Shown piece after piece: positions 24,353 through 53,602 of a stretch of 53,602 bases of DNA. Source of the stretch: an uncultured Candidatus Saccharibacteria bacterium. GTDB taxonomy: Bacteria; Patescibacteriota; Saccharimonadia; Saccharimonadales; UBA10212. The notes under the pieces are model-generated. The model had not been told where the DNA came from. It made no database searches and was given only the letters and a program-made list of their open reading frames with translations. The position numbers were made by a program, and so were the translations under genes. The stretch lies in contig CAYUUT010000006.1 of assembly GCA_964448095.1 (NCBI GenBank), positions 1-53,602 of the forward strand. Reading direction: 5' to 3'. Each line of letters starts with the position of its first letter. Within the stretch, counting starts at the first letter, position 1.

Positions 24353-24501
24353 CTAGGACCACTCCCTCTTGTTGTGTGTGCTAGTTACGCTATTTTTACA
24401 GCGGCGAAACTAAACGCTGTACTGCTAGCCTCAATGCCTGTTCTGGCACCGACGCTGTAGACCAAGGGCAGCTGATGATTGTTCTCACCGTTTGCCGCCC
24501 C

Positions 24502-24642
24502 ACCGCTAGGTTTCTGGTGCCTGCCCCGTAGTGAGCTTTCGCGATATCCGCAAAGCGGATATTTTTGGCTACTGGTGCTTGCTCACGCATAGCCAAAACG
24601 CGAAAGTCTACTACCGGGCTTGCTCACGCAAAACCTAGCGGT
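24502..24642 (-). ncRNA. Candidate multi-stem structured RNA of unknown family
   Basis: Nested inverted repeats: accgctaggttt/aaacctagcggt, ctttcgcg/cgcgaaag, atatccgc/gcggatat, ttttggcta/tagccaaaa. Strand inferred from the upstream promoter. Confidence 0.45.
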
Positions 24643-24650
24643 CGAGCAAC

Positions 24651-24815
24651 AAAAAACGACTGCTTTTCGTCCTGCAGTCGTGTGTTTTGGTTTTCTGGCG
24701 GGCTTATCTACACAACTGCAGCACTATCCTTCATAACGAGGATAATGTTACGGCTGGTAAATACGCGGCTTTGAACCATGCCATATTTTATACAGCAGCC
24801 CCTTGCCTATTGCAA
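24651..24815 (-). promoter_or_regulatory. Promoter, 23-aa leader ORF and terminator/antiterminator (attenuator)
   Basis: Minus strand TTGCAA-17-TATAAA; leader ORF 24779-24708; terminator acgactgc/gcagtcgt followed by T6; 24710-24721 can pair instead with 24672-24683. Confidence 0.5.
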
Positions 24816-24842
24816 GGGAGTTTTTAAAGATTGTGATTAATT

Positions 24843-40007: not shown

Positions 40008-40411
40008 TGGTGGAGTTGGAGGGAATTGCACCCTCGTCCGATTGGTAACATGCTTGGTGACTACAGGTTTAGGCTGTTTGAAATTTCTTAAGCTCAACCA
40101 TAAAAACAGTCAAAAAAGGGAAAGCTAAAGTCCATTAATCTTAGTAAGCACGGGCGGACAAACCCGGCAACTTAAGCAATCAGAAAATATAGCGCTTTTC
40201 GTCCTATCTGATGTCAGACGATTAGCGGTAGCCTATAAAATTAGGCTACGTTGAAGGCCAATTGGCGAGGAGCAAACAAGTTTGCAACCGCTTCTTTGAC
40301 ACTTACAGAAAGATTTTTTACATCTATCTTGGTGCACCGGATAACGTTCAGTGCGACCCGACCTGCCACTTCAGCTTGTTAAAGTCCATTCGTCGAATAA
40401 AATTCAACCCC
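40008..40411 (-). ncRNA. ssrA: tmRNA
   Basis: 5' GGGGTTGAATTTTATTCGAC; 3' GGACGAGGGTGCAATTCCCTCCAACTCCACCA; tag ORF 40300-40241 VKEAVANLFAPRQLAFNVA. Confidence 0.92.
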
Positions 40412-49568: not shown

Positions 49569-50513
49569 TTAAAGACCGCGGCGGCCGCGGCGGAACAGGT
49601 AGTGACCAATTCCACCAAAGGCGGACGTACCGACGAACAATCCGGCTACATCGCCAGGACCGGTGTTGGGCAAAGAAGGCGGAACCGTAGTGGTTACTGT
49701 AGCACCGGTAGTACATTTTGCCTTAGCGGCGGCGCTGGCACTGGCCTGAGCGTTAGCTTGGGCGTTGGCCTGAGCTTGGGCGTTGGCCTGAGCTTGGGCG
49801 TTGGCCTGAGCTTGGGCGTTGGCATCAGCCTGAGAGACCGTAGAGGTCGCGGAAGCTGTGGCGCTGGCAGAAGCCGAAGCCGTAGCGCTGGCACTTGCAG
49901 TAGAGTTCGCAGAACCCTTATTGCAGGTAGCAGCAGCGTTGGCTGTAGCAGATGCCGTAGCTGTAGCAGTAGCGGTAGCAGTGAAAGTGGCGGGAGCTGG
50001 GCAGCTAACTTGAGCCTTGAAGTTTACGAACTCAGTAGTGGAACCACTGACAGTGCCAATATTGACATTGCCGGAAGTAATTCCATCAGACAGAGTCCGA
50101 ATTAGGTGACCGCTACCATCGTAAAGATTGGTAGAACCATTTTCGTAACTAATGGTATTCCCTGAGGCTAAATTAACGGTGGCGGAGTCAGAAGTACCAC
50201 TTGCGCCACCAAGGTCGGTAGTAGCAGTGAAAGTACTCGTTCCGCCATTGCTTGGCAGTGTGGCGTTGACTTTTACGTTTGTAAGATCGCCAAACTCGAC
50301 GTTACTCAGCATCATGCTGTATTGAACTTCGTCACCACAAGCAGCACTTATAGAACTGGCGTAAGAACCGCTTTGAGTCAGGTTTTTAGCCAGGTAAAGA
50401 CCTGTGCCACCAGCAAGCTGGCCCGGACTAGCGGCTAAAACCGGAGACATGCTGAGAGCTGCTACGGCAATAAGGCCGGTAGCAACAGCAGCTATTTTAG
50501 AAAGACTTTTCAT
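49569..50513 (-). CDS. LPXTG-anchored surface protein (DUF11-like domain plus Ala/Ser/Thr-rich domain)
   Basis: GAAAGGAG SD with ATG 50513; signal peptide; C-terminal LPNTG, hydrophobic segment and RRGRRGL. Confidence 0.75.
   Translation of the reverse strand: MKSLSKIAAVATGLIAVAALSMSPVLAASPGQLAGGTGLYLAKNLTQSGSYASSISAACGDEVQYSMMLSNVEFGDLTNVKVNATLPSNGGTSTFTATTDLGGASGTSDSATVNLASGNTISYENGSTNLYDGSGHLIRTLSDGITSGNVNIGTVSGSTTEFVNFKAQVSCPAPATFTATATATATASATANAAATCNKGSANSTASASATASASASATASATSTVSQADANAQAQANAQAQANAQAQANAQANAQASASAAAKAKCTTGATVTTTVPPSLPNTGPGDVAGLFVGTSAFGGIGHYLFRRGRRGL
49756..49823. repeat. 18-bp tandem repeat, about 3.8 copies (encodes NAQAQA)
   Basis: (gcttgggcgttggcctga)n. Confidence 0.9.
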
Positions 50514-50666
50514 AGTCGATCTCCTTTCGAATGAGCGCACTTAATTGATTAATTAATATTGATACAAACTAGATAGTTATTGGACTTTAAAGTGATGAGT
50601 GGCTGGTCCGCGCGCAGGCGCGGACCAGCCGATGAATCGACTACCTCATCATTTCGTGCTTGCTCG

Positions 50667-52283
50667 CTATGGGCGAGTGGAGTGCGAGATCGCCACGGTC
50701 TCCGTGAACTTGTCGATCGCCGAGGTTCCGGGGATCGTTACGGTCACGGTGATTGTCGTGGAAGTCGCACTCGGGTCGCTCGGTCCGACGAACGTCAGGC
50801 AGAACGGCACATTCGTACCAGCCGACTGGCTGAAGTTCAGAACCGCAGCCTGTGGCGTCTGGCTGCACTGGGCGACCTTGGCGATGCCCGGATCCACCGT
50901 CACCTGGAAGGCATCCGTTGAGGTCACCGTGAAGTTCTGGTTCGGCGCCGTCGGCGTCGTTCCAGGCACAGTGGCCGGGATGTCGTTCAGGGTGGTACTC
51001 GAGCTGATCGCGATTGCGTGACTCGGCGCCGGAGTGTTGATCGTCACGGAAGTCGAGCACGAGCTCGACTGGACTCCACTCGGCGTGCCGAAACGCAGGG
51101 TGGCCGTGATGGTCCGAGTTCCCGCCGACCCGTAGGTGTGCGACGCGGTGGTCGACGCCTGAGTTCCGGTGGTGTTGCCGTCGCCCCAGTTGAACGATGC
51201 GTCCTGGAAGGTCGCAGTCCCGCTGAGGCTGTAGTTCGCCGTCACTGACGCCGTATTGCCGCTGAGTGACGGCGACGTCAGGCCGGTGCAGACGCCCGAT
51301 CCCGTCGGAGACGGGTTCGGGTACTGGCACGGAAGCGCGCCGCCGTAGTTCGTGGCGGAGTGATCGGTGCAGGTCGGAGCCACAGGCGGCGGAGCCTGGC
51401 ACGAAGCCGAAGCACTCGCCGTCATCTTGTAGCTCGCCGTTGCGGTGACCGTTGCCCGCAGGTTGTTGGCCTGCGTGCTGTTGATCGCCGCCTGATGGGC
51501 CATGTTCGTGGCCTGCATCAGGGTCCTGCCCGTTCCGGTGCCGCTCACGACGATCGACTCGCTGTCGGTACCAGTTGCGGTACCAGAAGCGGAGGCGCCG
51601 TTCGTGGCGTCACCCACCGTGCAGCGCGCGGACGCGCTGACGGTGCCGTGAAGCGTCAGCTTGAGGCTGAGCGTCACGGTGTAGTTGAAGTTCTGGACGA
51701 TCTTGTACCTGCCGTAGTAGATGTTCTTCGGCTGGGGTGCGGTCTTCGGCCAGAAGACGTTACCGCAGTCCTCCCAGGTCGGAGGGCCGCCTGCCTTGCG
51801 CCAGCCCGAGGGGCTGGATGCACTCGGGCAGATGTAGGCCTTCTTCCCGGCCCACGGGATCGGAATCGTCTTGCCTGCCGAGTTGACGTAGGAGTTCGTA
51901 CCCCCTACGACCCAGTGGCAGCTCTTCTGCTCTCCGACGGTCGGCTTCCAGCCGGCGGGGAAAGCCCAGCGGAGCTGCATGACGCCGCCGGAGTTGACCT
52001 TGAGGGTTGCGACCTTGCGGTCGCTCTCGCTCGAGGTCATCTGGGCGACCTGGTTGCAGTAGGTGACGCCGTTGGCGGCGGTCGTACAGGTCTGTCCCGC
52101 CGAGGGCGGCGGGATCTTCTTGCAGCTTGCGCTCGGCTTGTCGAAGCTGTAACCCTTCGGGCAAGTCGGAGCCGGGCTGTTGTCGTTCGTGTTCTTGGTG
52201 CTCGCGAACGCGGTGCTCGCGACGACCATCAGAAGCGCCCCGACCACGCTGGCCAGGACGAGGAGCTTACGCATGCGACGCAT
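50667..52283 (-). CDS. GC-rich secreted protein with Cys-rich N-terminus, Ala/Ser/Thr-rich domain and PKD domain
   Basis: Signal peptide MRRMRKLLVL...AFA; PKD FNWGDG...HTYGSAGTRTITATL; GC-rich third positions. ORF track starts at 52328; ATG 52283 preferred. Confidence 0.75.
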   Translation of the reverse strand: MRRMRKLLVLASVVGALLMVVASTAFASTKNTNDNSPAPTCPKGYSFDKPSASCKKIPPPSAGQTCTTAANGVTYCNQVAQMTSSESDRKVATLKVNSGGVMQLRWAFPAGWKPTVGEQKSCHWVVGGTNSYVNSAGKTIPIPWAGKKAYICPSASSPSGWRKAGGPPTWEDCGNVFWPKTAPQPKNIYYGRYKIVQNFNYTVTLSLKLTLHGTVSASARCTVGDATNGASASGTATGTDSESIVVSGTGTGRTLMQATNMAHQAAINSTQANNLRATVTATASYKMTASASASCQAPPPVAPTCTDHSATNYGGALPCQYPNPSPTGSGVCTGLTSPSLSGNTASVTANYSLSGTATFQDASFNWGDGNTTGTQASTTASHTYGSAGTRTITATLRFGTPSGVQSSSCSTSVTINTPAPSHAIAISSSTTLNDIPATVPGTTPTAPNQNFTVTSTDAFQVTVDPGIAKVAQCSQTPQAAVLNFSQSAGTNVPFCLTFVGPSDPSATSTTITVTVTIPGTSAIDKFTETVAISHSTRP

Positions 52284-52762
52284 GGTGCGCTCACCGTACC
52301 TTTCTTGTGATCGAGGACAAGGAAACACAGCACAGGCTTGATCATTTCCCGTGCTGTGTGTTTGCCCGATGATGCTGGACAGAACAACACAGCGGCGAAA
52401 TCTTCACCGCCAAATTGTTCTGTCCAACGAAGGACAACTTAAGCACCGGATAATCATTGAATGAATTGGTAGTCGATTATTGGTCTAAAACCGCGAGCAA
52501 AAAATGCTCAAGCGGGTTTAAAGACCCATAACTATCTAGTTTGCTTTTTTTCAAAAACAAACTTTTCTAATTTTTAAGTAACACCTCACCTGCTACCGCT
52601 TCCAGAGCAACTTTCCTATCTGTTGTACCCCTGTAAGAGATTTCCACCTCTTCGCTGTGAAGCGAGGATGTCCATACTCTACCACAAGAAGTCAACTATG
52701 TCAACATGCTTAAGTATAATTATGCGAAAAACACAAGCTTCATAAAATTGTCAAATGCCCTT

Positions 52763-52799
52763 AAAAAGAAAGCGCCCGCTCAAGACTTGCTGGAGCGGG
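52763..52799 (-). terminator. Intrinsic terminator on the minus strand
   Basis: Minus strand cccgctc-loop-gagcggg-cgc-TTTCTTTTT. Confidence 0.65.
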
Positions 52800-53380
52800 G
52801 GTTCGCACACCTTTTTCAGGGTGCGTAAATTTGTAGCTTGGTTCAATACGCTTAACGCGGAACTGGAATTACCATAAACAGGGGACGACCCCGCCGTGAT
52901 GCCGTCAGTCCAGACGGGGTCGGCCCTGTGGGGGTTGTTGGTTCACTGTCACGGGGGCGTGACAGCTCTTGCGCGGCTCAAACTTCTGAACCGCAAACGT
53001 CGGACCATCCTCTTTCACCACGCGCCGGGCGGCTATCCGTCTCTTCTGTGCAGACGTCGGAAGCGCTCGTACTTTGTGGATTCAGAACCATGGATGGTCC
53101 TTCGGCGACAGCAACCACGCTGTCGCGGACCTGCGGGGGACCCAAAAACACGCTTGAATCACGATATTCAGGACCGTGATCACTGTTGGTGTGGCGCGTG
53201 CCAAGGTACTTCGTCCCCCGAGGGTGGGCTAAGGCTGAGTACCCTGCCCACACTGGACGGTTCTACAGACAAGGTCTTCTTGCAGTAACCTTGCCCTACC
53301 GTCCAAGTTAAAAACGTCGGTAATTCCTCAAACTACGTGGGAGCTGGCTCTTGGTTTTCCCAAAAAAGCGCTCACCAGGC
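52800..53380 (-). ncRNA. Candidate large structured ncRNA of unknown family
   Basis: TATAAT at 53391-53386, terminator at 52763-52799, at least 8 stems in between and no convincing ORF. Confidence 0.4.
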
Positions 53381-53410
53381 CCATTATTATAACCTATTAA
53401 ATGAACTACA

Positions 53411-53602
53411 TCAAGGACGTTGGGCAGCCTTGGGGGTTTCACCGGCTTTCACTTCTTTAGGTTTACGCGGAAAACTGAAACCAAAGGTACTGCCCTTCCC
53501 CTCGCTACTCTTAAAGATAATCGCCCCGCCTTCGGCTACTACCACCTTCTTGGCCATAAACAGGCCTAACCCCGTACCATCTGGCCGCATCTTCCTAGCA
53601 TT
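53411..53602 (-). CDS. Sensor histidine kinase, C-terminal fragment (5' part outside window)
   Basis: Not in the ORF track. NARKMRPDGTGLGLFMAKKVVVAEGGAIIFKSSEGKGSTFGFSFP...; HATPase_c G2 box. Confidence 0.85.
   Translation of the reverse strand, partial: NARKMRPDGTGLGLFMAKKVVVAEGGAIIFKSSEGKGSTFGFSFPRKPKEVKAGETPKAAQRP

Follow-up and report, generated by a model that had tools for sequence, protein, structure and literature searches.

The window analyzed here, 53,602 nt in length, is the whole of contig C6 of a 965-kb, 18-contig metagenome-assembled genome of a soil member of the Saccharibacteria (order Saccharimonadales), an organism known from metagenome assemblies only. On its minus strand, the gene for a sensor kinase is followed by a 1.1-kb non-coding stretch that we treat as two units. 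Unit 1, the subject of this work, is a predicted non-coding RNA (ncRNA) lying between the kinase stop codon and a second promoter, P2, while unit 2 comprises P2 and its long leader and drives variable surface-protein genes. The kinase gene itself is truncated in the window. The last 55 bases of C6 (53548-53602) are identical to positions 1-55 of contig C18, on which the gene continues, and this join was confirmed by two ENA contigs of 128 kb and 530 kb carrying the same locus (ERZ27245399 and ERZ27245400). The overlap identifies the truncated gene (53411-53602) as the 3' end of that for a sensor kinase of 723 aa whose domains are HisKA_7TM, HisKA, and HATPase_c. Upstream of unit 1 on the minus strand lie one or more response regulators, a pyruvoyl-dependent arginine decarboxylase, an unknown protein, and then the kinase. 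Downstream of the kinase, the order is unit 1, unit 2, a 538-aa GC-rich PKD-type secreted protein, an LPXTG protein, pgk, and tpi.

Unit 1 is delimited by its own transcription signals. A sigma-70-type promoter (P1, TTGATG-17-TATAAT), which agrees with the consensus at 10 of 12 positions, overlaps the stop codon of the kinase gene, and an intrinsic terminator (dG -12.6) closes the unit, both where an earlier reading of the DNA letters (hereafter, the original prediction) had placed them. The terminator hairpin reads CCCGCUCCAG..CUUGAGCGGG and is followed by CGCUUUCUUUUU; our terminator scanner skipped it solely because its loop exceeds 8 nt. Coordinates of these and other features are collected in Table 1.

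Searches for coding content bore out the original statement that no credible open reading frame (ORF) is present. One frame of 130 aa is open on the plus strand and one of 91 aa on the minus strand, yet neither matched a Pfam or PHROG family and neither occurs in a collection of 15 billion proteins. The 130-aa frame gave 0 HMMER hits in 1.84 billion representatives, and no Shine-Dalgarno sequence precedes the 91-aa frame. A tblastx comparison of five units (the window, L034, and L037-L039, where L numbers denote related loci) revealed no conserved ORF, and the same comparison detected at once a real small gene in L035 and L036. The two open frames, and a middle section with a GC content above that of the genome, are what speak for a decayed or unrecognized protein gene, or for GC-rich foreign DNA like the neighboring PKD gene. 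The absence of Pfam, PHROG, protein-collection, HMMER, and tblastx matches rules out a decayed gene. Horizontally transferred junk resembling the PKD gene is ruled out by a GC content of 0.52-0.59 common to all 13 units described below, which marks a family trait and not a local import. We regard either origin as barely credible. Two further candidates were rejected separately. A remnant of the small L035/L036 protein was ruled out because tblastn finds that protein in those two loci only. A mobile element, such as the remnant of a miniature inverted-repeat transposable element or an insertion sequence, was ruled out by the single-copy state of the unit, the lack of a shared terminal repeat, and closing-helix sequences that differ between genomes.

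Known RNA families were likewise not recovered. Scanning 51500-53602 on both strands against Rfam 15 with cmscan at E up to 1, a check proposed with the original prediction, returned nothing credible: three sub-threshold chance matches only (MIR9563, Guanidine-II, and anti-hemB). The unit of L034 had no Rfam match, and 18 related loci scanned at the gathering score contained only tRNAs. In agreement with the reported lack of RNase P, SRP, and group II signatures, unit 1 was unmatched by the group II intron, RNase P, SRP, tmRNA, and 6S models; the tmRNA of the window lies elsewhere (40008-40411). The covariance models of OLE, ROOL, GOLLD, raiA, and HEARO had no match (window and L034 at E up to 1; 18 loci at the gathering score). 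That of RNAIII (RF00503) did not match unit 1 either, and no conserved small ORF was found. BLASTN against phage and plasmid collections gave no match to unit 1, and a full-text literature search found nothing on structured RNAs of Saccharibacteria or Patescibacteria.

Unit 1 nevertheless folds far better than its shuffled controls. The z score was -9.0 on the minus strand versus -2.65 on the plus strand, and a separate set of dinucleotide shuffles gave -7.3 versus -3.5. Comparison with shuffles flatters genomic sequence of any kind. Sixty random 631-nt windows from the same genome had a mean z of -1.58 (standard deviation 1.57, minimum -6.6), and unit 1 lay beyond all 60. The GC-rich middle alone (52870-53310) still gave z -5.4 in the sense and -2.75 in the antisense direction; the signal is therefore not an artefact of mixed composition, in which AT-rich flanks are shuffled into a GC-rich center.

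All helices listed in the original prediction are present in the sequence, and most appear in the minimum free energy (MFE) fold. These include ACAGGG/CCCUGU with CGACCCC/GGGGUCG, CUGUCACG/CGUGACAG, GGACCAUCC/GGAUGGUCC, GCGACAGC/GCUGUCGC, AUCACG/CGUGAU, GUGGGC/GCCCAC, and UGGACGG/CCGUCCA with CAAGGU/ACCUUG. Within the predicted middle, GGACCAUCC/GGAUGGUCC forms a long-range helix, and a 20-bp hairpin spans 52878-52929. A proposed crossing (pseudoknot) helix, ttctgaa/ttcagaa, did not stand: it is at chance level, since we estimate that 630 nt should contain roughly a dozen 7-mers of this kind, and the MFE fold places the segment in a local hairpin.

BLASTN in 60 relatives, as in the phage and plasmid collections, recovered unit 1 in its own genome only. 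The closest kinase among the 15 billion proteins is 58% identical, and an alignment of the window and L034 units was random apart from P2. The data examined thus contain no relative with which the window RNA can be aligned. Related loci were gathered by means of the kinase and the P2 landmark from GTDB genomes, ENA, JGI, and Logan assemblies, and metagenome contigs. The landmark is the start of unit 2 (GTGGTAnAGTAT..CATCCTCGCTTCA). Half of the genomes sampled from the window's family have it (12 of 24), whereas it is missing from all 377 genomes that represent other families of the order. Kinase-profile scans of metagenome and genome contigs returned mostly distant relatives, with L041, L128, and L141 the only new unit-bearing loci.

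A unit of this kind is present in twelve further genomes of the Saccharimonadales, in the order kinase stop, unit, conserved P2 and leader. Across these 13 distinct genomes, the window included, the slot between kinase stop and P2 measures 548-859 nt with no conserved ORF. In every one the -10 box begins -2 to +44 nt from the kinase stop, and the RNA, of 505-780 nt, ends in a hairpin and a U-run. A promoter and terminator of its own, conserved in position across species, is the generic mark of an ncRNA gene and was found in 13 of 13 loci. Sense z scores ranged from -6.6 to -14.6, and the sense strand folded better than the antisense strand in all 13. Counts of G·U pairs in the 13 RNAs were mixed and do not account for this sense-strand advantage.

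Loci with other contents in the slot provided a built-in control. In L035 and L036, a conserved protein of 84-92 aa (51% identical between the two) takes the place of the RNA, and these slots fold like shuffles (z -0.4 and -2.0). The protein (L035, 4060-4314; L036, 6232-6510) belongs to no Pfam family and follows the pattern VKLP.G....V..G..D.VLRGY..TA..LG.E.AA.LYKRANP. Judged by slot size, L082 probably holds the same protein, which may be a functional alternative to the RNA. In approximately 6 related loci, the slot is just 6-156 nt. Separately, distant Saccharibacteria lacking the P2 landmark show strong folding right after the orthologous kinase (z -6 to -15 over the first 500 nt in L083, L017, L057, L080, L045, and L040), and in L079 and L023 a tRNA gene lies inside the folded stretch that follows the kinase homologue.

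The arrangement of the slot could also reflect a cis-acting element, that is, a structured 3' untranslated region shielding the kinase mRNA from 3' exonucleases, an insulator against read-through into P2, or both. Because no terminator separates the kinase gene from P1, kinase transcripts must end at the terminator of unit 1, which may thus also form the 3' end of the kinase mRNA. The unit always lies directly upstream of P2. This holds even in L205, where a unit of the same plan, with a 13-bp closing helix (AAGGAAUCGGACU/AGUCCGAUUCCUU), a terminator, and a GCTTGTG box, precedes P2 although the nearest 1.5 kb contain no kinase; the unit may thus be tied more tightly to P2 than to the kinase. 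Against a purely cis-acting role, all 13 loci have a consensus -10 box at the kinase stop, which points to independent transcription, a single terminator hairpin would suffice for insulation, and genomes with the shortest spacers do without the unit. We consider this explanation quite improbable.

The units share a predicted plan: a short 5' arm, a closing helix clamping a site about 50-100 nt from the 5' end to one just upstream of the terminator, a middle of 400-500 nt of stable hairpins, a C/A-rich linker, and the terminator. The long-range closing helix of most units begins 41-95 nt into the RNA, counted from the predicted 5' end, and finishes 1-23 nt short of the terminator hairpin, with a sequence that varies from genome to genome (Table 1). 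Compared with shuffled 3' windows, the closing helix was supported by a Fisher combined p of 2.4e-6 over the 13 genomes; five loci reached p 0.02 or lower individually, among them the window (p = 0.02). The predicted pairing is kept between relatives through different sequences. A motif of the GGUGAGCGC type recurs near the 5' end of relatives (GUGAGCGC in L003, GUGAUGCGC in L128, CUGAGCGC in L012, GUGCGCGC in L004, and GUGAGGUGC in L005), and L034, L038, and L141 have both the C/A-rich linker and a three-way-junction terminator.

Comparison of the closest pairs revealed how differently arms and middle evolve. The kinases of L037 and L039 are 88% identical in amino acids and 78% in nucleotides, and their units are 77% identical in the 79 nt at the 5' end and the 70 nt at the 3' end. 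Between these arms, identity falls to 33-55% per 60 alignment columns, against a shuffled level of approximately 48-52%. L038 and L141 showed the same pattern, with an alignable 5' arm of 75 nt and 3' arm of 135 nt. The middle, of approximately 450 nt, is thus unalignable even between genomes whose kinases are 88% identical, yet the middles of both pairs fold at z -10 to -13. Unconstrained drift should return z to the genome mean of -1.6. That the middles stay strongly folded suggests that hairpin density is maintained without sequence conservation, and since structure density is conserved and sequence is not, alignment and covariance-model approaches fail.

The same data bear on whether unit 1 is a non-functional spacer, in which palindromes arose at the DNA level by template switching or repeated small insertions and the promoter- and terminator-like sites are incidental. 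Such an origin would fit the near-neutral rate at which the middle evolves, a slot that variably holds a unit, a small protein, or nothing, and the many perfect stems with very negative antisense z scores. Against it stand the better folding of the sense strand in all 13 units and z scores that unselected drift would be expected to pull back to the genome mean. Promoter, closing helix, C/A linker, and terminator are, moreover, kept across genomes whose neutral sites appear saturated, given that the closest kinase pair is only 78% identical in nucleotides. The genome contains no second copy of any part of the unit, and the motif excess described next is strand-specific. We consider a functionless spacer very unlikely.

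C-rich motifs are concentrated on the sense strand. Across the 13 RNAs, C-rich pentamers outnumber G-rich ones 174 to 72 (9 to 2 in the window), and CCUCC occurs 25 times versus 6 for GGAGG. In the predicted folds, 8 of the 13 RNAs have hairpin loops with a C content of 0.31-0.48, examples being CCCC, CCCUC, and AGCCCUCC. These motifs would also suit a protein-binding scaffold or sponge, in which the hairpin array, possibly with its C-rich loops, offers many equivalent sites for a double-stranded RNA- or loop-binding protein, comparable to CsrB/RsmZ-type sponges or the OLE ribonucleoprotein. Selection would then act on hairpin number and stability only, leaving the sequence free to drift, which best accounts for a middle that loses sequence similarity while keeping extreme folding. 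The predicted 9-18 hairpins per RNA and the repeated C-rich loop motifs in most members agree with such a role. However, no candidate partner protein is encoded beside the unit, no one repeated loop motif is common to all members, the window RNA is largely without C-rich loops, and the unit is dispensable in related genomes. A scaffold or sponge thus seems unlikely to us.

Our data suggest, with a probability that we put at roughly 0.75, that unit 1 is a real, independently promoted structured ncRNA gene of a new, family-restricted class that matches no Rfam family. Its product would be a stand-alone non-coding RNA. Of the original proposal, a large ornate ncRNA akin to OLE, ROOL, or GOLLD or else a new class, the part describing a large structured ncRNA outside Rfam families held; the likeness to those three did not, as only the ends, the closing helix, and the terminator persist between genomes.

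Several observations weigh against this assignment. In 240-nt pieces unit 1 does not stand out (its residual z of -1.1 to -1.4 is within the top 7-12% of the genome), suggesting that its signal depends on the whole unit with its long-range pairs. No covariation was found for the inner helices of the middle, which are thermodynamic predictions; no relative is alignable there. Alignment of seven 5' arms with MAFFT and RNAalifold gave no pairs, and that of six 3' arms 8 weak pairs only. The closing helix is not individually convincing in 3 of 13 units (L034, L003, and L037). Antisense z scores of the relatives are also strongly negative (-4.5 to -8.7), indicating that many stems are perfect Watson-Crick palindromes, which could also arise by a DNA-level process. 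About half of the related loci lack the unit, which is hence accessory and dispensable. In the window RNA there is no CCUCC, the hairpin-loop C content is 0.23, which is not C-rich, and only three C5 runs are predicted to be exposed (a CCCC loop at 52954-52957, the linker at 52930-52944, and an AACCCCC linker before the terminator). Lastly, control of the adjacent leader by antisense pairing was rejected, since the best unit-leader helix within a genome was no better than those across genomes.

Table 1. Positions of predicted features of unit 1, closing helices of related units, and other elements of the window.
Feature	Locus	Position	Strand	Remarks
Promoter P1, TTGATG-17-TATAAT	window	53414..53386	minus	
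-35 box of P1, TTGATG	window	53409..53414	minus	contains the kinase stop TGA (53411-53413)
-10 box of P1, TATAAT	window	53386..53391	minus	position kept in 13/13 unit-bearing loci
Predicted transcript, ~618 nt	window	52763..53380	minus	start placed from the -10 box; MFE -268.8 kcal/mol
5' hairpin, UGGUGAGC/GCUCCCA enclosing UUUUUGG/CCAAGAG	window	53338..53377	minus	MFE fold; carries the GGUGAGCGC motif
Closing helix, 5' strands GUAGUUUG and GGAAUUACC	window	53319..53336	minus	partners at 52833-52840 and 52865-52873
Closing helix, 3' strands GGUAAUUCC (52865-52873) and CAAGCUAC (52833-52840)	window	52833..52873	minus	MFE fold; small hairpin in between
GC-rich (~60%) middle	window	52878..53308	minus	predicted structure; ~11 helices, dense in hairpins
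C/A-rich linker, AACCAACAACCCCCA	window	52930..52944	minus	MFE fold; predicted single-stranded
Hairpin, CGCACCCU/AGGUGUGCG	window	52804..52825	minus	MFE fold; between closing helix and terminator
Intrinsic terminator	window	52763..52799	minus	hairpin 52775-52799; U-tract UUUCUUUUU 52763-52771; dG -12.6
Closing helix, GGAAUUACC/GGUAAUUCC plus GUAGUUUG/CAAGCUAC	window			
Closing helix, AACAAGAGAUUUGC/GCAAAUCUCUUGUU	L039			
Closing helix, CGAGAGAUUUGC/GCAAAUCUCUCG	L013			
Closing helix, AGAACAAGUUUCGCU/AGCGAAAUUUGUUUU	L004			
Closing helix, ACAAAUAGGUUUG/CAAACCUAUUUGU	L005			
Closing helix, GAGAUGUUGUU/GACAACAUCUC	L041			
Closing helix, ACAAGAGAUU/AAUCUCUUGU	L038			
Closing helix, GUAAGAGAU/AUCUCUUAC	L141			
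Unit 2	window	52330-52704	minus	
Promoter P2, TTGACA-17-TAGAGT	window	52704..52676	minus	TG extension
GCTTGTG box	window	52732-52738	minus	~45 nt upstream of the P2 -35 box
27-nt leader motif, CAAACTAGATAGTTATGGGTCTTTAAA	window	52517-52543	minus	
27-nt motif, inverted copy	window	50565-50591		
ORF-free folded gap, 490 nt	window	24353-24842	minus	between a 123-aa ORF and an aldo/keto reductase

Unit 2 has features of its own. Its leader of approximately 340 nt starts with CAUCCUCGCUUCA, runs to the PKD-protein gene, and has no Rfam match. No other 240-nt stretch of the genome is as extreme in its folding as this unit (residual z -5.8). An invariant long-range pairing CCUCGC...GCGGGUGAGG is predicted for it, and its sequence is conserved in approximately 20 genomes of the family and only there. 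The GCTTGTG box upstream of P2, kept in the window, L003, L004, L005, L012, L013, and L205, is a candidate binding site for the response regulator of the locus; CTTGTGG recurs beside the -10 box. A 27-nt leader motif and its inverted copy, the latter just downstream of the first gene after the leader, bracket the 538-aa PKD gene and are the only two copies in the genome. In L036, L038, L082, L128, L137, and L141, the first downstream gene likewise lies between two such copies, spaced 1.4-2.1 kb from each other, and the motif had no match in viral contigs. Possible roles include the ends of an invertible gene segment, flanks for cassette exchange of surface proteins, or pairing between the 5' and 3' ends of the mRNA.

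The two ENA assemblies of the locus differ by just 2 substitutions in 14.2 kb (52885 and 52557), both inside the 1.1-kb non-coding stretch: the first falls in what is predicted to be a bulge of the 20-bp ncRNA hairpin, the second in the leader. A further difference is a 36-nt change of repeat number near 49790, in the gene for the LPXTG protein. Elsewhere in the window, a gap of 490 nt between an ORF and an aldo/keto reductase gene folds at an MFE of -205 kcal/mol (z -9.6, 100 shuffles). Rfam gave no match for this gap, which ranks second among the folding outliers of the genome scan. As a second ORF-free folded stretch, it suggests that such RNAs are recurrent in these genomes.

How such an RNA might act can be approached by analogy. 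A structured ncRNA gene combined with an RNAIII-like mechanism is, as a joint reading, one that we hold slightly better than an even bet; a trans-acting RNAIII-like riboregulator as such is the mechanism that we favor over the others, though with low confidence. Five likenesses to RNAIII speak for it: the position beside a membrane kinase system, a size of approximately 0.6 kb, many hairpins grouped by long-range helices, conserved ends with a variable center, and exposed C-rich motifs. In this model, a multi-hairpin RNA linked to the neighboring two-component system would act in trans, its exposed C-rich loops and linkers pairing with the G-rich ribosome-binding regions of target mRNAs, while the stable hairpins would provide longevity and handles for RNase III. 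Selection would act on hairpin density and exposed C-rich single-stranded motifs and not on a fixed tertiary fold.

A more speculative proposal, to which we give long odds, is that unit 1 represents an undescribed clamped hairpin cassette. Conserved arms and a closing helix would hold a middle that turns over at the neutral rate, its long, stable hairpins, some bearing C-rich loops, being kept by selection, and the RNA would be the output of a seven-transmembrane kinase locus upstream of variable surface-protein genes bracketed by inverted repeats in episymbiotic Saccharibacteria. RNase III could cleave such a cassette into numerous small duplex RNAs, or the cassette could act on fast-evolving partners such as phage or host factors, which would explain the hypervariable middle.

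Genomes of Saccharibacteria and other candidate phyla are approximately 1 Mb in size, so that 0.6 kb kept for a folded RNA beside kinase and surface-protein genes is unlikely to be idle. If real, unit 1 is a large, lineage-specific RNA new to a group on whose RNA biology the literature that we found is silent. It would also illustrate an unusual mode of evolution in which structure density is kept and sequence is not, invisible to standard covariance-model searches. The unit offers a concrete candidate for the regulation of surface proteins in episymbionts, and the 13 orthologous units with two protein-coding control loci make the question testable.

Among known systems, the closest parallel is RNAIII of Staphylococcus (RF00503), which belongs to the agr kinase system. 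Both are RNAs of approximately 0.5-0.6 kb with many hairpins and their own promoter beside the locus of a multi-pass membrane histidine kinase. The hairpins of RNAIII are grouped by long-range helices, and its ends are conserved between species while its center varies. RNAIII, which is the effector of a sensing system built on a kinase, targets ribosome-binding sites with conserved C-rich loops (PMC2837412). Exposed C-rich loop motifs are predicted in most members of the unit family also, with few in the window RNA. In contrast to RNAIII, unit 1 shows no sequence or covariance-model similarity and no delta-haemolysin-like peptide, has no agrB/agrD-type genes among its annotated neighbors, and is co-oriented with and downstream of the kinase gene instead of divergent from it.

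OLE, ROOL, GOLLD, and raiA resemble unit 1 in size class (0.4-0.8 kb), in having their own promoter and terminator, in lacking an ORF, in heavy structure, and in restriction to particular lineages. Those RNAs, however, have invariant nucleotides and covarying junctions throughout, whereas the units described here conserve their arms only and are hypervariable in the middle. Small RNAs derived from 3' untranslated regions with an internal promoter, such as DapZ and MicL, are 80-300 nt long and have one seed region. They share with unit 1 a promoter located at, or within, the 3' end of the preceding coding sequence and a terminator used jointly with that mRNA; unit 1, in contrast, extends over approximately 620 nt with more than ten helices.

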